From: Candidatus Bathyarchaeia archaeon
GTDB taxonomy: Archaea; Thermoproteota; Bathyarchaeia; 40CM-2-53-6
Length of the DNA: 11,107 nucleotides
Assembly (NCBI GenBank): GCA_049517415.1
Contig: JBEKSC010000046.1
Coordinates: 1 to 11,107 of the forward strand
Direction: 5' to 3'
The notes below the pieces were generated by a model. The model worked only from the letters and a program-made list of their open reading frames with translations, was not told the origin of the DNA and ran no database searches. The position numbers were made by a program, and so were the translations under genes. This document shows, piece after piece, positions 1,280 through 9,782 of the stretch (positions are counted from its first letter, which is position 1; every line of letters starts with the position of its first letter).

Positions 1280-1312
1280 AAAAAGGAGCCTAGTCTCTTG
1301 GATACTAAGGCT
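1280..1312 (-). terminator. Candidate hairpin + U-tract terminator after the cobalamin-binding subunit gene
   Basis: Minus-strand RNA reads AGCCU-U-AGU-AUCCAAGAG-ACU-AGGCU-CC-UUUUU, starting in the stop codon: an 8-bp stem with one bulge, then 5 U. Confidence 0.35.
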
Positions 1313-1750
1313 ACTTCCAACGTTCCTTCTTAACGCGGCCCACTATGTGGTCGACGATTGCTTTCAGAGTTGTGCCTGGGCCGAAATTTCCCGTTATTCC
1401 CAACTTCTCAAGTTTTGGTTTGTCTTCTTCGGGAATAATGCCGCCGCCTACAAGCAGTATGTCGCTTGCGTGTTTCTCTTTCAACGCCTTCGCGACTTTC
1501 GGGAACGCCGTCATGTGTGCCCCGTTGAGCAGACTCATTGCGACAACATCAACATCCTCATCAATAGCCATCTGAGCGACTTGCTCAGGGCTGGCCAAGA
1601 GCCCTGCATAGATTACTTCCATCCCAGCATCTCGGAGTGCCCTGCACAGAACAAGGGCGCCACGGTCGTGCCCGTTTGGCCGTAGGTTTACGCGAGCCCG
1701 GGCTTCGCCACAAGCACCCTAATCTTTTTCTGCTCGGTCTTCCTATCCAC
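1311..1750 (-). CDS. Cobalamin (B12)-binding small subunit of acyl-CoA mutase (IcmB/MCM C-terminal type), split by a 17-nt intron: join(complement 1693..1750, 1311..1675), 140 aa
   Basis: Exon 1 reads VDRKTEQKKIRVLVAKPGL and exon 2 reads (D)GHDRGALVLCRALRDAGMEVIYAGL... Removing 1676-1692 gives CTC GAC GGG CAC GAC CGT GGC = LDGHDRG, the DxHxxG cobalt-ligand motif. Downstream SLLNGAH and VGGGIIP motifs are intact. The ORF track only finds the truncated 1311..1622 piece. Confidence 0.9.
1676..1692 (-). other. Putative 17-nt bulge-helix-bulge (BHB) mRNA intron, CGUAAACCUACGGCCAA
   Basis: Fold: exon stem GCCCG/CGGGC (5 bp), central helix GGCU/GGCC (4 bp), bulges CG^C and AA^A (3 nt each), intron stem GUA/UAC with AACC loop. 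Cuts after the 2nd base of each bulge match the boundaries that restore the Asp codon. Unspliced it gives an in-frame TAA and a frameshift. Confidence 0.88.
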
Positions 1751-1773
1751 CGTGCGTGTTGTTGAGATCTTTC

Positions 1774-1785: not shown

Positions 1786-3558
1786 TCAGAGTATCGAGGG
1801 TTCCTTCCAGTCCCCGAACACTTTTCTCCCAACGTCAACGATCTCTCCAAGTGTCGCATAGGACTTGACCGCTTTAAGCATCGGGTAAATACTGTTTGAA
1901 TTAGGATCCTCGAAAGAAGAGCGAAGTTGTTCTAAAGAGTTTTTCACCGCGGTACCATTCCGAGTCTTTTTGAGTTCACCTAACCTCTTTACCTGGCTCT
2001 GGCGCACTTTTTCGTCGATTCTTAAAGTCTCGATGGGGGAAGCTTCATTCATTTCGTAGGCATTGACTCCCACAATAACTCTCTTGCCTTCTTCCATCTG
2101 ACGTTGGTACTTGTATGAGGTGTCTGCAATTTCTCTTTGGATGAAACCTTTCTTGATGGCGGCCAGAATACCGCCTATGTCCTCGATTTTAGCGAGATAC
2201 TCGAATGTTCGCTGTTCCAGTTCATCCGTTAACCACTCCACATAATAGGACCCGCCGAGAGGATCGATTACATTGGCAACACCTGTTTCTTCGGCTACCA
2301 GTTGCTGCGTTCTCAGGGCGATTAGGGCAGCCTGCTCTGTTGGCAGGGCCCACGCTTCATCGTAGGCGTTTGTGTGCAGGGATTGTGTTCCACCCAGTAC
2401 TGCGGCTAAGCCCTCTACCGCAGTTCTTACAATGTTGTTGAGTGGTTGTTGCCACGTCAACGATACACCTGATGTCTGGGTGTGAAATCGCATCAGCATT
2501 GACCTTGGGTCTTTCGCATGGTATTTTTCCTTGAGAACCTTAGACCAGATTCGTCGCGCAGCCCGGAATTTTGCAATTTCCTCGAAGAAATCCATCCCGC
2601 AGTTAAAGAAGAACGACAACCTGGGGGCGAAATCATCCACCTTCAGCCCAGCCTTCAGGCCTAAGTCTACATACGCAAAACCATCGGCGAGCGTAAAAGC
2701 CAGCTCTTGCAAGGCGCTTGAACCAGCTTCGCGAATATGGTATCCGCTTACGCTGACATAGTTCCACGTCGGCATGTGTTTTGTGGAGTAAAGCATCATG
2801 TCACGGATAATTCGGAGGTGAGCTTCAGGGGGATACACCCACTCTTTTTGGGCAGCATACTCCTTGAGAATATCCGTCTGCACGGTGCCACGCAGTTTTC
2901 TTGAATTAAATCCGCGCTCATCCGCGAGTGCAACATACATACAAGTTAGGACAGAAGCCGGCGCGTTGATTGTCATTGAGGTACTGACCTGATCAAGCGG
3001 AATGCCATCAAAGATGGCCTCCATGTCTTTGAGTGACGATACGGAAACGCCGCATTTGCCAACTTCGCCTTCCGCCCTCGGATGGTCGGCGTCAATTCCA
3101 TACAAAGTGGGCATATCGAAAGCGATGCTCAGCCCAGTTTCGCCCTCTTTAAGGAGGTACTTTAGGCGGGCGTTGGTTTCCTCAGGGCTCCCGTAACCAG
3201 AGAACATTCGCATAGTCCACGGGCGACCTCTGTACATGGTAGGGTAGATTCCACGGGTGTATGGAAATTCGCCGGGTAATCCAATATCACGGTGATAATC
3301 ATGGTGCGACACGTCAGTAGGATCGTAGATGCGCTTGAGGGGGATCCCTGAGGGATTCTCGAAGGCTTCCCTCCGCTCAGGTGCATTCGCCAACCATTTC
3401 ATGAGCGTGCCTTGGTTCCATTTGCGCTGATTTCGCGCAATGGAATGGAGCTCTTTGCGGTTGTACAGCGTGGCCTGTTTCTTTTTCGCGGCTGTAATTT
3501 GCTCAACTTTCCTGGCCCAGTAATTTATTCTTCGTTTTGGGGGCATTTGTTTCCACAC
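1786..3558 (-). CDS. icmA: Acyl-CoA mutase large (substrate-binding) subunit, isobutyryl-CoA mutase-type
   Basis: MCM-family motifs PGEFPYTRG, GLSIAFD, STSMTIN, SGYHIREAG, FHTQTSG, GGTQSLHTN, DPLGGSYYVE; no fused B12 domain. Specificity positions are Phe (WTMRMF) and Gln (KEYAAQ) rather than Tyr/Arg. The true start is uncertain and may lie downstream of 3558. Confidence 0.85.
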   Translation of the reverse strand: MWKQMPPKRRINYWARKVEQITAAKKKQATLYNRKELHSIARNQRKWNQGTLMKWLANAPERREAFENPSGIPLKRIYDPTDVSHHDYHRDIGLPGEFPYTRGIYPTMYRGRPWTMRMFSGYGSPEETNARLKYLLKEGETGLSIAFDMPTLYGIDADHPRAEGEVGKCGVSVSSLKDMEAIFDGIPLDQVSTSMTINAPASVLTCMYVALADERGFNSRKLRGTVQTDILKEYAAQKEWVYPPEAHLRIIRDMMLYSTKHMPTWNYVSVSGYHIREAGSSALQELAFTLADGFAYVDLGLKAGLKVDDFAPRLSFFFNCGMDFFEEIAKFRAARRIWSKVLKEKYHAKDPRSMLMRFHTQTSGVSLTWQQPLNNIVRTAVEGLAAVLGGTQSLHTNAYDEAWALPTEQAALIALRTQQLVAEETGVANVIDPLGGSYYVEWLTDELEQRTFEYLAKIEDIGGILAAIKKGFIQREIADTSYKYQRQMEEGKRVIVGVNAYEMNEASPIETLRIDEKVRQSQVKRLGELKKTRNGTAVKNSLEQLRSSFEDPNSNSIYPMLKAVKSYATLGEIVDVGRKVFGDWKEPSIL

Positions 3559-3639: not shown

Positions 3640-5256
3640 TTGGTTCCTAGGATTGTTCGTCCAACTTTGAAGGAAAAGAAGAGTTCTTCTTCGCCGGCCA
3701 CGACAGGGAAGCAACACTTCGGCGCGTCAGATTCCAGTCCTCACTACCCCAAAGGCATTCTAGGTGAACCTGGCAAATTTCCATTTACGCGCGGTATCTA
3801 CCCTGAAATGTACCGTTCGCGGCTCTGGACGATGAGGCAGTATTCAGGGTTTGGTAGCGCAGAAGCCACGAATAGGCGTTTCAGGTTTCTGATAAAACAA
3901 GGACAAACCGGGCTCAGTGTTGCCTTTGACCTTCCGACTCAATTGGGGTTTGATTCAGACAGCCCGAGAGCTGAGGGCGAGGTGGGCCGGGTAGGAGTAC
4001 CCATCAGTTCCGTGGAAGATATGCGATTGCTTTTCCGAGGCATCAAGCTTGGAACGGTCAGCACTTCCATGACCATCAACGCTACTGCGGCCATAATGCT
4101 GGCGATGTATGCTGCGGTAGGGAGTTCGCAAGGGGTTCCGCTTTCACGATTGCGGGGAACGACGCAGAATGATATTCTCAAAGAGTACATAGCTCGAAAT
4201 ACCTACATCTTCCCTCCCGAGCAATCCTTGAGGTTGTCCGTGGATATCATCGAATTTTGTGCAGAACAGATGCCGATGTGGCACCCGATCAGCATAAGCG
4301 GATACCACATAAGGGAAAGTGGCTCAAGCGCAGTCCAGGAACTCGCTTACGCGTTTGCAAACGCAGAAGAGTACGTTCGCGCTTGCATTAAGCGAGGATT
4401 GGAGGTCGACGATTTCGCACCACACTTGTCCTTCTTCTTCGCATGTCATAACGACTTCCTAGAAGAGATAGCGAAGTTCCGTGCAGCACGTCGCATATGG
4501 GCGCATATGATGAAAGAAAAATTCCACGCGAAGAATCCTGAGTCTATGAAGCTACGTTTCCATACTCAAACTAGCGGGGAAACGTTGACTGCACAGCAAC
4601 CGCAAAACAATATTGTGCGCGTGGCCATACAGGCTTTGGCAGCGGTCTTAGGGGGTACACAATCCTTGCACACAAATTCCCTCGACGAAGCGTTATCTTT
4701 GCCTACAGAGGAAGCCGTGAAAATAGCACTCCGAACGCAGCAGATAATTGCCTTCGAGAGTGGCGTGACAAAGGCAATCGACCCATTGGGTGGGAGCTTC
4801 TACGTGGAATCCTTGACGAACAAGATTGAAAACGAAGCGAAAGCCGAGATTCGTAAAGTCGATGAATTAGGCGGTGCTGTGAAAGCAATTCAGAGCGGAT
4901 ACATCCAGAATCAGGTTCGCGATAGCGCCTTCAAGAGGCAAATGGGCATAGAATCGAGCGCTCACAAGATAGTCGGCGTTAACGTATATGTTGACACGAA
5001 ACCGTACCATATTACCCTCCATAAGATCGAGTCAGCCGCGGTACGCCGGCAGATCTCTCGCACTAAGGCTTTCAAGCGAAAACGCAAGAAAACTCAGCTA
5101 CTTCGTAACCTCAGAACGCTTCAGAATGCTCTAGAGCGAGACATCAATGTAATGCCTTTGATAATCAGCGCTGTAAAGTCCGGAGCCACCACCGGCGAAA
5201 TAAGTGATGCCATAAGAGAAGAGTATGGGGAGTTTCATCCCAAGACCATTATCTAG
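3640..5256 (+). CDS. mcmA: Methylmalonyl-CoA mutase large (substrate-binding) subunit
   Basis: Same family motifs, with the MCM specificity residues Tyr (WTMRQY) and Arg (KEYIAR); no fused B12 domain. TTG start is uncertain. Confidence 0.9.
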   Translation: MVPRIVRPTLKEKKSSSSPATTGKQHFGASDSSPHYPKGILGEPGKFPFTRGIYPEMYRSRLWTMRQYSGFGSAEATNRRFRFLIKQGQTGLSVAFDLPTQLGFDSDSPRAEGEVGRVGVPISSVEDMRLLFRGIKLGTVSTSMTINATAAIMLAMYAAVGSSQGVPLSRLRGTTQNDILKEYIARNTYIFPPEQSLRLSVDIIEFCAEQMPMWHPISISGYHIRESGSSAVQELAYAFANAEEYVRACIKRGLEVDDFAPHLSFFFACHNDFLEEIAKFRAARRIWAHMMKEKFHAKNPESMKLRFHTQTSGETLTAQQPQNNIVRVAIQALAAVLGGTQSLHTNSLDEALSLPTEEAVKIALRTQQIIAFESGVTKAIDPLGGSFYVESLTNKIENEAKAEIRKVDELGGAVKAIQSGYIQNQVRDSAFKRQMGIESSAHKIVGVNVYVDTKPYHITLHKIESAAVRRQISRTKAFKRKRKKTQLLRNLRTLQNALERDINVMPLIISAVKSGATTGEISDAIREEYGEFHPKTII

Positions 5257-5280: not shown

Positions 5281-6255
5281 GTGCCTAAATCGCATGCAAA
5301 ATCAACGCCCAGCGCATTAATTCGAAAAGCTGTGCATGGGGATCGACGTGCCATATCACAGTTAATGTCGATGGCTGAGAATGACCCTCAAGCGAGGATT
5401 ACGATTCTTTCTAAGTTGTACTGGCTTACTGGGAAGGCGCAAATCGTTGGCATAACTGGTCCGCCAGGATGCGGAAAGAGCACGCTGATTGCACAACTTG
5501 CGAAGCGTTACAGAGATGCTGGCCGCAGTGTGGGAATTGTCGCTGTCGACCCGTCAAGTCACATAACTGGTGGAGCCTTGCTTGGTGATCGAATTAGGAT
5601 GGGAGAACTCGCCTCGGATCCCCGAGTTTTTATCAGGAGCATGGCTACTCGCGGGCATTTTGGGGGGGTTGCAAGAGCAACGGAAGACGCGGTTCGAATC
5701 CTAGACGCTTCGGCGATGGACTATGTGATTGTTGAAACAGCGGGAGCGGGTCAGTCAGATGTTTATGTTAAGCAACTTGCGCATACCACTGTCGTCGTAA
5801 CTGCCCCCGGGATGGGGGACGAAATTCAAGCTTTGAAAGCGGGCATTATGGAAATCGCAGATATCTTCGTCGTCAACAAGGCCGATAGGGAGGATGCGGA
5901 CCGCGCGGCGCAAGAAATTCACCAAATGATTATGATGTCCGAACCTTTCCGAGGCTGGCGGCCACGCGTCCTGAAGACGGTTGCGACATCCGGGGATGGA
6001 GTCGCCGGACTCGTGGAGACGATAAACCAACATGCAAAGTACCTTGGGGATTCCGGCGGGTTGCGGAAAACTAGAGTTGCACGCCTGCCTTCTGAAGTGC
6101 TTGAAGTAGCCAAACAGTACTTTGAGGAGGTAACGCTGAAAGAAATAGCGACATCCGAAATGTTTCAGAAAATTATGAGGCAGGTAACAGCGAACAAAAT
6201 TGACCCTTACTCCGCGGGCCGCAAATTAGTCAGTAAGCGACTTGCAAGACGCTAG
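5281..6255 (+). CDS. meaB: Methylmalonyl-CoA mutase-associated GTPase MeaB (ArgK/MMAA family)
   Basis: GITGPPGCGKS Walker A, AVDPSS, GGALLGDRIRM, FIRSMATRG, VETAGAGQ, NKAD; 24 nt downstream of the mutase gene. Confidence 0.95.
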   Translation: MPKSHAKSTPSALIRKAVHGDRRAISQLMSMAENDPQARITILSKLYWLTGKAQIVGITGPPGCGKSTLIAQLAKRYRDAGRSVGIVAVDPSSHITGGALLGDRIRMGELASDPRVFIRSMATRGHFGGVARATEDAVRILDASAMDYVIVETAGAGQSDVYVKQLAHTTVVVTAPGMGDEIQALKAGIMEIADIFVVNKADREDADRAAQEIHQMIMMSEPFRGWRPRVLKTVATSGDGVAGLVETINQHAKYLGDSGGLRKTRVARLPSEVLEVAKQYFEEVTLKEIATSEMFQKIMRQVTANKIDPYSAGRKLVSKRLARR

Positions 6256-6451: not shown

Positions 6452-7252
6452 ATGCGCTCAATCTGGTCTCCCAGATTATCTGCTTGTATTCTTCACGGCA
6501 ATTCTATGGTTCCATTGAATTGTAAAGTAACCGTCGAAAACTTTGTGAAAGTTAACGACCTTCTAGGCAAGCGTGAACAGTTACAACCTGATTTGACTTC
6601 TGGCATGGAAGTCATAGACGGGATCTTGAGGCTCAACTTCGGCCAGTTTGTTACGTTTCAGGGGAACCATGCACATGCTCTCTCTATGTTACTCTGCGTC
6701 AGGGCGACTCTGCCACAACCGTTAAGCCCAGATTGTGATTCGGTATTCGTTGACGGAGGTAACCTTTTCGACCCATACTATATCTCAGACCGCTCAGTTG
6801 AGCATGGCCTTGACACGGAGAAAGTGTTAGAACGTCTTCACGTCAGTAGGGCTTTCACCCACCACCAACTCGCGTGCCTCATAACCGATAAACTTCCACC
6901 CGCGATAAAGAAATTCAGGGCGAAATTCGTCGTCGTCTCTGGCATTACGCAGCTCTACCGCGACCCAGACATACAGGGCGAGGATAAAGAAGATGCACTT
7001 CGCATCTTCGCGAAAACTGTAAGAAAACTCGCAAGCCTCGCCAGACAACAAAAATGCTTGATAATTGCAACGAACTTAGAATCCAGAAATACACTAATGG
7101 ATCACATCCTTGCACAGGCCGCTCACGTTGCTGCAACAATCGAGCAAAAAGACACCTTGATTCGATTCTCATTACGGAAACATCCATGGCTTCCCCCAAG
7201 CACCGCTGTCGCATCCTCGCCTGGGATCGTGACTTTGGAGAGTTACCTGTGA
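6452..7252 (+). CDS. Inactivated RadA/Rad51-like ATPase-fold protein associated with PolB2
   Basis: LTSGMEVIDGIL, VFVDGGNLFDPY, LERLHVSRAFTHHQL and VVVSGITQLY resemble the RecA/RadA core, but the Walker A GxxxxGKT is absent (FQGNHAHALS). The real start is probably ATG 6506 or GTG 6545. Confidence 0.8.
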   Translation: MRSIWSPRLSACILHGNSMVPLNCKVTVENFVKVNDLLGKREQLQPDLTSGMEVIDGILRLNFGQFVTFQGNHAHALSMLLCVRATLPQPLSPDCDSVFVDGGNLFDPYYISDRSVEHGLDTEKVLERLHVSRAFTHHQLACLITDKLPPAIKKFRAKFVVVSGITQLYRDPDIQGEDKEDALRIFAKTVRKLASLARQQKCLIIATNLESRNTLMDHILAQAAHVAATIEQKDTLIRFSLRKHPWLPPSTAVASSPGIVTLESYL

Positions 7253-7506
7253 TGGGGCGAACAATACCGTCATGGAGAATGGTCGTAGAGGCTGAGGTTG
7301 AGAAACTGAAAAGATTTCAGGAATTTCTCAGAGAAGAAGACAAAATCATTTTCGAAGATATGTTGAACCAATGTAAGCTGCTCGCGTCAGCGGCGAGTGC
7401 AATGGCCTCACCAATAAAACAGGTGCCCTTGATCATTTCTATGCTGTTCGCGCACCACAAGAAAATTATCGAATTAGAGAAGAGGATCGAAGAGCGGGGC
7501 CTTTGA
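7252..7506 (+). CDS. Small alpha-helical PolB2-associated protein (arCOG07300-like), 84 aa
   Basis: MGRTIPSWRM... begins at the ATG overlapping the upstream TGA (TGATG); its own stop overlaps the polB2 TTG (TTGA). This position matches the conserved PolB2 operon. Confidence 0.8.
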   Translation: MGRTIPSWRMVVEAEVEKLKRFQEFLREEDKIIFEDMLNQCKLLASAASAMASPIKQVPLIISMLFAHHKKIIELEKRIEERGL

Positions 7507-9782
7507 AGCATCAAGGCTGGATCCTTGACCTCTACCCTAATGCTGGCCAAATGGTGGTCTGGCTCAAGCAGCCCGACGGATCATGTGTTAGGCTAGTTGA
7601 CAGGTGGAAACCACGAATCCACATTGGCGGGGAGCTTGACGACCTTCTAAACCTTCAACCATTCATACCATCAGGCACATTCGTCGAGAAATTTGAGAGG
7701 GCAGGCGATAAGTCTGAGAGTAAAGTTCTCGAAGTTGAAGTAAACGACGAACCAGAAGCCCAAGCTCTGGGACGAAAAATCCTCCGGCATGGTGGATACT
7801 CGACGTTTAGGCTCTACGACGTGGATGTCCCATCAACTCAAATGTACCTCTATCACAACGACTTGTTCCCTCTAGCGTTCGTCGAGGCCGACGCCTCTCA
7901 TGGCCGCGTTAAGTGGGCTGTCAATGATTCACGTGAAACAATCGACTACGAACTACCAGCGCTTCGAAACCTACGGCTAGAAATTAGCACCAAGAAGACT
8001 CGTAGAGTCTCACGATTTGAAGACGAATTAGGCTCCATTAAAATCCAAACCAACGGGGACACCATGATTTTCGATTCAGGCAGTGAACTCGACAAACTTG
8101 ACAAACTCGTCACAGCATTCCGCGAAATTGACCCAGACGTAGTCTTGACGGAAGGCGGAGACTCCTTCATCTTTCCCTACTTGGCTAGACGTGCTCACCA
8201 CCACCATATACTCCACAGAATGGTTCTCGGAAGGGAGGAGTCGCCGCTTCGTGTTTATGAGGTGCAAGGCCACAGTTACTTCTCGTACGGGAAGATGCTC
8301 TTCAAGCAAACCGCCGCAAGACTGCTGGGCCGGTTGCATGTGGACGAGGCGAATGGTTTCATCAGCAGCGACTGCGGCCTCGAAGGCCTTTTCGAAGTAG
8401 CCCGAACCTGCATAATCCCATTGCAGAGGGCCTCGCGAACGACGATTGGCACTAGTATGACGTCCCTTCAACTCTACCACGCCGTCAAAGCCAACGTGCT
8501 AATCCCCTGGAACAAGAACGAGCCCGAGGAGTGGAAGAACGGAAACGAGCTCATACTAGCGGACCGCGGCGGCTTCATTTACGAACCAAAATTCGGACTA
8601 CACGACTCCGTTGGGGAACTCGACTTCTCCTCCCTATACCCAACCATAATGCGCAACATGAACCTGAGCGGGGAAACCGTACGTTGCAACTGCTGTCCAG
8701 ACTCCGTTCATAGAGTACCAGAGCTGGGGTGGAATGTTTGTGAACGATGGAACGGCATAGTGCCCAGATCGCTCGACATATTACTCCGGAAACGTGCGCT
8801 TTACAAGAAGTACAAGAAAGAAGCTACGGACCCACCTACGAGGTTGCGGTATGATCAACGCCAAGCCGCGCTCAAATGGATCCTAGTCTGCTCATAGCCG
8901 CCTCGAAAGCGGCGGGCAATTGGATACCTAGGCTTCAAGAACGCGCGGTTTGGGAGAATCGACGCGCACATCGCAACCTGCGCTTACTCCCGGCAGATTC
9001 TACGAAAAGCGGTTGCAATCGCGGAATCCAAGCGCTTCCAACTCATACACGGCATCGTGGATTCGATGTGGCTCCGGGAACCTAACGCAACCCCAAGCGA
9101 GTATGAGGAACTATGCCGCACGATAGAGGAGCAGCTACGCTTCCCGATAGCGTTCGAAGGATGCTACAAGTGGATTGTGTTCCTGAACTCGCGAATAAAT
9201 CCGCGAATTCCTGTCCTCAACCGTTACTACGGAATCTTTCAAGACGGGAAACTCAAAGTCAGAGGAATCGACCTCCGCCGCCACGACACTGCCGGCATAG
9301 TCAGGCGATGCCAAACGGACGTGCTGACCACACTCTCGAAGGCTGATAACTCAGAGGAATTCATGACGCTCATACCTGAAGCGCTGACGGTAGTAAGGTC
9401 ATACGTTCACCTAATCAGAAGCGGAGCTATCCCAGTCGAGGAACTCGTTATCGAGAAACGCCTCAGCAAGAATCCCAACGAATACAGAAATCTGGTTCCA
9501 CAAGCCATCGCGGCTAAACACCTTGCTGCGGAAGGCATGGAGGTACACGCCGGGCAAACAATCAACTACATCTTAACCTACGACAAGTCTAGGATAAACC
9601 AGAACAGAGCTCTCCCAACTGAGCTGATGGATGAAGGATCCGACTTCGACTCGGAGAGGTATGTCGATCTACTACTTTCCTCAGTTGTCAACCTTCTACT
9701 ACCCTTTGGATATGATCTAGCAGCGTTGAAAGACCCTGACAGGCAAATCAGCAAAGCACCAGGTTTAGGTTCGCCTAGGTAA
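7503..9782 (+). CDS. polB2: Family B DNA polymerase, PolB2 group, split by a 24-nt intron: join(7503..8895, 8920..9782), 751 aa
   Basis: ORFs 7503..8897 and 9057..9782 are in the same frame with a single TAG between them. Motif A is ELDFSSLYP; motif B is restored to KWILVCSFGYLG after removing 8896-8919; motif C is the PolB2-type HGIVDS. NRYYG and KVRGIDLRRHD are present; exonuclease acidic residues are degenerate. Confidence 0.9.
8896..8919 (+). other. Putative 24-nt BHB mRNA intron, AGCCGCCUCGAAAGCGGCGGGCAA
   Basis: Central helix GCUC/GGGC (4 bp), bulges AU^A and AA^U, intron stem GCCGC/GCGGC (5 bp) with 7-nt loop; exon-side stem imperfect (CCUAG 8882-8886 / CUAGG 8928-8932 further out). 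Cuts after the 2nd bulge base join T8895 to TT8920-8921 = Phe. Unspliced it creates TAG at 8895-8897. Confidence 0.85.

Follow-up and report, generated by a model that had tools for sequence, protein, structure and literature searches.

The gene for the B12-binding (small) subunit of an acyl-CoA mutase in a Bathyarchaeia genome is broken within the aspartate codon of its cobalamin-binding motif, which raises the question of whether the interrupting nucleotides are spliced out of the message, passed over by the ribosome, or are a mark of damage. In the 11,107-nt stretch of DNA that we analysed (the window), the insert is 17 nt long, lies on the minus strand at 1676..1692, and splits the Asp codon of DXHXXG after its first base; relatives carry inserts at the same site. 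From the comparative sequence evidence we are highly confident that this is a real archaeal pre-mRNA intron of the tRNA type and that it is spliced, and production of the enzyme very probably depends on splicing of the message.

The split B12-binding subunit gene and its predicted splice site

Exon 2 of the gene (1311..1675, minus strand) matches TIGR00640, the acyl-CoA mutase C-terminal domain, with 131 bits against a cut-off of 57, and an intronless relative (P0016) matches the structures PDB 2yxb and 4r3u_C. P0016 is labelled Bathyarchaeia at its source, and its exon 2 sequence is 100% identical to that in a genome of the host's genus. The DXHXXG motif, whose Asp-His pair is described as the cobalamin-binding motif of mutases in the part of PMC4915002 considered here, is present only once the intron is removed. 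Directly upstream on the same strand lies mutase large subunit A (1786..3558; TIGR00641 and PF01642). Large subunit B, also recognised by profile matches, is divergent (3640..5256, plus strand), and a MeaB-type mutase-associated GTPase (TIGR00750, above cut-off) lies at 5281..6255 on the plus strand. At the position of the methylmalonyl-CoA mutase Tyr, subunit A has Phe and subunit B has Tyr, a pattern that we take to suggest an isobutyryl-CoA-type (A) and a methylmalonyl-CoA-type (B) enzyme sharing one B12 subunit.

Exon 1 (1693..1768, minus strand) comprises 25 codons and one base, and probably begins with a non-canonical ATC at 1768; the alternative is a GTG at 1750. The candidate ATC (1766-1768) follows a GGAGG site at 1776-1780 by a few bases on the minus strand, and ATC, ATT or ATA stands at the start position in 28 of 36 genus-type loci, with ATG or TTG in five and none of these in three. 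Counted from the ATC, the spliced product is 146 aa long. The initial annotation had estimated that an unspliced message would yield a peptide of roughly 20 aa; that figure stands for the GTG start (20 aa), but becomes 26 aa if the conserved ATC is the start. It had also named this gene as the only B12-binding subunit in the cluster, on which both mutases would depend, and both statements hold genome-wide: in the host genome (100% complete, 6.9% contamination) PF02310 matches this gene alone, and the two PF01642 large-subunit matches both lie inside the window. We infer that the one B12 subunit serves both large subunits; since the Asp-His pair binds cobalamin, neither would have a B12 partner without splicing. 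The motif Asp is not invariant among homologs, and Asn takes its place in some uninterrupted ones (L032, L322, L326, L338, L340, L344, L361, L363, L365, L374, and L383). Public-database calls for these genes are 103-126 aa long and mostly lack the Asp or the entire cobalamin motif; because gene callers truncate the genes in this way, metabolic reconstructions are distorted.

The minus-strand transcript of 1670..1703 is predicted to fold into an hBHBh' motif, with a 5-bp outer helix between the exons (1703-1699 paired with 1674-1670), a 4-bp central helix that includes one G-U pair (1698-1695 with 1681-1678), a 3-bp intron stem closed by a 4-nt loop (1691-1689 with 1684-1682), and two 3-nt bulges (1694-1692 and 1677-1675). 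EndA cuts between the second and third bulge residues, according to the portion of PMC2738675 used here, and the predicted cuts fall after 1693 and after 1676. This structure is both the minimum-energy and the centroid fold of the 34-mer, and its pairs persist in 54-nt and 91-nt contexts, so that folding at all three lengths bears out the canonical motif, complete in all its elements, that the initial annotation had described. That annotation also derived the same 17-nt boundaries from the BHB geometry and from the protein, with a junction that cannot slide, and here too we agree: among deletions of 2-20 nt starting at 1720-1687, only the removal of 1692..1676 restores KPGLDGHDRG, so the junction is fixed, and the insert ends defined by the protein coincide with both BHB cut sites, after the second base of each bulge.

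Taken by itself, the fold is no more stable than chance would allow (z = -1.14; 27 of 200 shuffles are equally stable), and nine BHB-shaped sites in the window pass our filter. Because the fold is ordinary and such sites are numerous, what carries the argument is the agreement with the protein motif, together with conservation in relatives. A search with Rfam gave no match at the gathering score anywhere in the window, and a homing-endonuclease or group I/II intron is ruled out, as inserts of 15-32 nt are too short for a nuclease or a ribozyme core.

Same-site inserts in Bathyarchaeia and Asgard archaea

An ortholog search of 61 genomes gave matches in 39; an insert occupies the same base in 17 of the best 30 of these 39 loci, and the other 13 are uninterrupted there. 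The insert is present in 13 of 15 loci of the host's own genus, the intronless relatives there being L012 and L016, in all four loci of genus g5, and in none of the other 11. In a further set of 40 Bathyarchaeia loci, none of the 37 that cover the site has an insert. An alignment of orthologs had been expected to reveal exactly 17 extra nucleotides; the insertion point is indeed the same base, but the length is not fixed, and inserts vary from 15 to 23 nt.

A metagenome pattern scan yielded at least 120 loci, of which 108 are readable by motif and the remaining 12 are intronless homologs with K-L-G-L-D. Because the search pattern itself specified the exon strand of the central helix, conservation on that side is circular in this set, which is also biased towards intron-bearing alleles. 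Pooling all loci gave 137 rows, 112 of them unique, among the matches listed, and 66 of these 112 have introns of 15-23 nt, with 58 distinct sequences. Among the matches listed, the four central pairs are kept in all 58 distinct introns, and the first, second, and third intron-stem pairs in 57, 42, and 27, respectively; the weak stem in many relatives would require relaxed recognition there. The spacing of the BHB (4 bp plus 3 nt) is constant whatever the insert length.

The outer helix is visible in the exons themselves. Its fourth pair forms in 55 of the 58 distinct introns versus 4 of 46 intronless rows, and three codons of the motif follow suit: the third position is C in the Pro codon of 62 of 66 intron-bearing versus 2 of 46 intronless rows, C in the Asp codon of 66 of 66 versus 13 of 46, and G in the second Gly codon of 62 of 66 versus 4 of 46, all among the matches listed. 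Synonymous exon sites are thus held to the outer helix in intron-bearing genes. The protein is also constrained, with an exon 2 dN/dS of 0.012-0.061 in the five intron-bearing pairs with unsaturated dS; this is the purifying selection of a working gene, rather than the value near 1 that the initial annotation had named as the sign of a pseudogene. In the remaining intron-bearing pairs synonymous sites are saturated and pN is 0.03-0.12.

On a gene tree of 105 rows (seven short rows dropped, motif codons excluded), intron state changes twice among the matches listed, versus 33 times with shuffled labels. With intronless outgroups, we read the two changes as one gain and one loss, a history in which a single gain, in the common ancestor of two genera within one Bathyarchaeia family, was apparently followed by at least one loss. 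The 58 introns then stem from one gain, and counts across them are not independent. Among the 108 readable metagenome rows in the matches listed, we found no intronless neighbour more than 84% identical to an intron-bearing allele. Protein matches include 69 full-length members of 120, some 90-96% identical to intron-bearing alleles, in a comparison where contig and protein look-ups cannot separate spliced RNA from intron loss; several of these close relatives are encoded on contigs of 17-198 kb, an indication that the intron has been lost in further cases.

A pattern scan of genome contigs returned mostly chance matches (among those listed, 105 of 120 rows lack the motif and two of the eight rows with inserts are other genes), and it also gave the first Asgard case, L243, with a 26-nt insert at the identical base. 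The B12-subunit gene is present in 120 of 151 genomes of L243's order. We inspected 72 Asgard loci (29 best matches, 40 selected, and three from the pattern), and eight of them (L304-L306, L362, L364, L391, L394, and L399) have a 26-32-nt intron with a full hBHBh' at the same base as the Bathyarchaeia intron. Searching 400 Asgard genomes with a pattern gave 19 matches, comprising the same eight and 11 chance matches outside the gene, with none in the reversed control; across 401 Thermoproteota genomes it matched the host genome and four chance sites outside the gene. In two of the eight Asgard introns a central pair has changed on both sides, from G-C to A-U. With about 52% identity between the Asgard protein and that of the Bathyarchaeia host, and with introns alike in little beyond the motif, an independent Asgard gain is likely.

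Within Asgard archaea the carriers are scattered on the gene tree, with eight changes, at least six of them forced by starred branches, a distribution indistinguishable from that of shuffled labels. Where one sister gene has the intron and the other lacks it, 0.34 of the last 14 exon-1 bases differ, versus 0.19 in 30 control pairs; among the eight carriers themselves only 1.7 of 22 flank bases differ, with 80% identity further away. This flank pattern fits short-patch transfer, but it also fits selection on the outer helix, or an intron that was ancestral and has been lost many times.

The site seems predisposed to gain introns, since its Pro-Gly...Asp-Gly codons are mutually complementary. 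The Pro-Gly-Leu-Asp-Gly codons may then be a ready-made splice site: as the exon flanks pair mutually and the central strand GGCU pairs with its own copy, a short tandem duplication at the junction would at once create a perfect hBHBh' intron, which EndA could remove without a scar. Such introns would have arisen separately in Bathyarchaeia and in Asgard archaea at the same base, would come and go between close Asgard relatives together with a short exon patch, and would then be selected for an in-frame stop. We offer this combined scenario tentatively, and judge it somewhat less probable than its failure in one part or another. Likeness to a tandem duplication exceeds that of structure-matched random introns in four of the eight Asgard introns (p 0.005, 0.008, 0.02, and 0.049, values neither independent nor corrected); the model is unsupported in the other four (p 0.11-0.43) and in all eight Bathyarchaeia introns examined (p 0.2-0.98). 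In the intronless Asgard allele L383, exon 1 ends like the 3' end of an intron and encodes Asn, as would be expected from a deletion between terminal repeats. If the duplication scenario is true, it offers a testable birth route for archaeal introns, means that protein-coding messages are spliced in Asgard archaea, and supplies a stop-inside-intron rule for finding such genes. With young and old introns at one site, and near-identical sister genes with and without them, the origin of BHB introns is directly testable.

Splicing machinery, the internal stop, and rival explanations

The host genome encodes the proteins that removal of the insert would call for. It has two EndA subunits, one of them closest to PDB 3p1z, 3ajv, 2cv8, and 2zyz, and one RtcB match (1-426, without a stop), and most of its tRNA genes contain introns (ARAGORN). 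All five Asgard carriers examined have two PF01974 matches each. We propose that the B12-subunit transcript folds into the hBHBh', that the two-subunit EndA would cut after the second base of each bulge, and that RtcB would join the exons, restoring the Asp codon and the frame of an approximately 146-aa subunit available to both mutase large subunits. Left unspliced, the mRNA would stop one codon into the intron, giving only a 20-26-aa peptide, and selection would keep that stop; the same site would have been occupied separately in Asgard archaea.

Splicing of messages in this genome is probably not confined to one gene. A second BHB-like intron, of 24 nt, lies at 8896..8919 (plus strand), within the gene at 7503-9782 for a family B DNA polymerase that we take to be PolB2-like. 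It breaks the sequence C-S-F-G-Y-L-G, creates a TAG at the 5' junction, and has a 4-bp central helix, a 5-bp intron stem, and a relaxed outer helix. At 17 of 30 polymerase loci a 20-32-nt insert is found at the same base, always forming TAG at the junction; eight loci have no insert, one has a single extra base, and four are unreadable by motif. A RadA/RadB-like gene, a small ORF, and the polymerase are grouped together at 6452-9782 (plus strand), presumably resembling an archaeal PolB2 operon. In polymerase loci L054, L055, and L062 the stretch before GYLGF is not the usual KWILVC, and in two of the three the open frame is very long (1283 and 1654 aa); we suppose that inteins may be present.

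The cbf5 gene of the host genome has a 19-nt BHB-like insert at GTL-D-P, within the catalytic Asp codon (G000:C24:34228-34246, plus strand); this insert has a 4-bp central helix and also contains a stop in frame. At least three coding sequences of this genome (B12 subunit, PolB2, and cbf5) thus appear to contain BHB introns, on comparative or positional support, and aIF5A shows no interruption across profile positions 4-130. An ab initio genome-wide scan for spliced genes recovered both window introns but had no power, with 67, 17, and 12 candidates under three filters versus 58-68, 13-20, and 6-10 with shifted decoy geometry, and 112 candidates after folding versus 104-181 for decoys. Given the split cbf5, and what the part of PMC2738675 considered here reports of such introns, mRNA splicing is very probably already needed in the host.

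The intron itself contains an in-frame TAA (1688..1690, minus strand), and a stop is close to universal. Among the matches listed, 57 of 58 distinct introns have one in frame, compared with 7 and 3 in the other frames and a shuffle mean of 19.6; it falls at codon 1 in 38 introns (TAA in 22, TGA in 10, TAG in six), at codon 3 in 18, and at codon 2 in one. Seven of the eight Asgard introns and all 17 PolB2 inserts also have it. That three stop codons and two main positions interchange argues for selection, although common descent inflates the count. In the absence of the stop, translation of unspliced mRNA would continue for a further 19 or 36 codons (medians for the shifted frames, among the matches listed), and introns of 15 and 18 nt would give a full-length protein lacking the Asp. 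The simplest reason for the stop may therefore be that it avoids junk or dominant-negative products.

A conserved stop could also speak for recoding by the ribosome, which would either hop over the stop-containing hairpin or restart within the insert, leaving the RNA uncut. Ribosome hopping is known from T4 gene 60; in bypass sites a conserved stop in the reading frame lies at the base of a hairpin, a layout that the stops in 57 of the 58 inserts among the matches listed resemble, and programmed bypass elements are defined by matched take-off and landing codons. Such a match is found in only one of the 58 inserts, however, and synonymous codons in six; the last insert-frame codon is AAC in 42, so that hopping would not give Asp, and an ATG, GTG, or TTG in the exon-2 frame occurs in five (all among the matches listed), with a restart forfeiting the first conserved strand of the protein. 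The exact 4-bp plus 3-nt spacing of the BHB is also kept across insert lengths, and we consider recoding very improbable. Less probable still, and rejected in substance by the same-base inserts and the dN/dS values, is that the gene is a pseudogene or the insert a sequencing or assembly artefact. The raw frame is broken and the database calls are truncated at 103-126 aa, as that explanation would have it, but the inserts recur in 66 unique rows from many assemblies among the matches listed, dN/dS is at most 0.06, and the gene, which is the sole PF02310 match, has two intact large subunits and MeaB as neighbours.

A further possibility adds to splicing rather than replacing it, namely that the spliced intron is a regulated switch that holds back the mutases, as might happen when tRNA substrates occupy EndA or when B12 is scarce; the alternative is that it is a tolerated, near-neutral passenger. 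The intron does sit in the sole B12-binding subunit, in a gene that also seems to use a weak ATC start, and it has persisted across two genera with synonymous sites saturated; a negative regulatory role has been proposed for the cbf5 intron, as stated in the part of PMC2738675 considered here. Against this, intron sequence and length drift freely except for the BHB and the stop, two relatives in the same genus (L012 and L016) and probably several further cases lack the intron, and none of the 37 further Bathyarchaeia loci covering the site has it. Since imprecise loss from an essential codon is impossible, its persistence is explained without any function. We think a switch unlikely, and favour a passenger intron with a selected safety stop.

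Relation to known BHB introns

The closest known system is the BHB intron in the cbf5 pre-mRNA of Desulfurococcales and Sulfolobales (Yokobori 2009, PMC2738675, citing Watanabe 2002 and Yoshinari 2006), with which we compare ours on the basis of the part of that report considered here. Both introns are short (16-44 nt in cbf5), lie in coding sequence between bases 1 and 2 of a functional Asp codon, are cut (or predicted to be cut) after the second bulge base, have a patchy distribution with losses, and go with a two-subunit EndA. By analogy, the B12-subunit intron would work as the cbf5 intron does, and what our analysis would add is the same-site introns of Asgard archaea, the selected stop, and the PolB2 intron. 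There are also differences: cbf5 encodes an RNA-modifying enzyme, whereas the B12-subunit host is a metabolic gene, in Bathyarchaeia and Asgard archaea; most cbf5 motifs are described as unconventional, whereas the motif in this genome is canonical; and cbf5 splicing was shown on cDNA, whereas the intron described here is known from DNA. The near-universal in-frame stop is a property of the B12-subunit introns, and the term "stop codon" is absent from PMC2738675.

The 5'-UTR intron of HVO_1309 in Haloferax volcanii is likewise an mRNA substrate of the tRNA-splicing endonuclease, but lies in an untranslated leader rather than in a coding frame, and in 2020 the same source named cbf5 as the only other mRNA example (PMC7714728, in the part considered here). 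In the open PubMed Central and bioRxiv literature that we searched, we found neither a BHB intron in this gene or in Bathyarchaeia or Asgard mRNAs, nor an archaeal coding sequence other than cbf5 with such an intron.

The tRNA introns of Asgard archaea and Thermoproteales (bioRxiv 10.64898/2026.10.13.758758; PMC4090602) are also short BHB introns with many gains, and in the parts of these sources considered here their route of arrival is left unresolved; the words "mRNA", "cbf5", and "tandem" do not occur in the bioRxiv preprint. Those repeatedly gained introns are in tRNA genes only, whereas the host here is a protein gene, with local tandem duplication as a candidate route. With the B12-subunit and PolB2 introns standing beside cbf5, the tRNA-splicing machinery appears to act also on messages for carbon metabolism and for a DNA polymerase.
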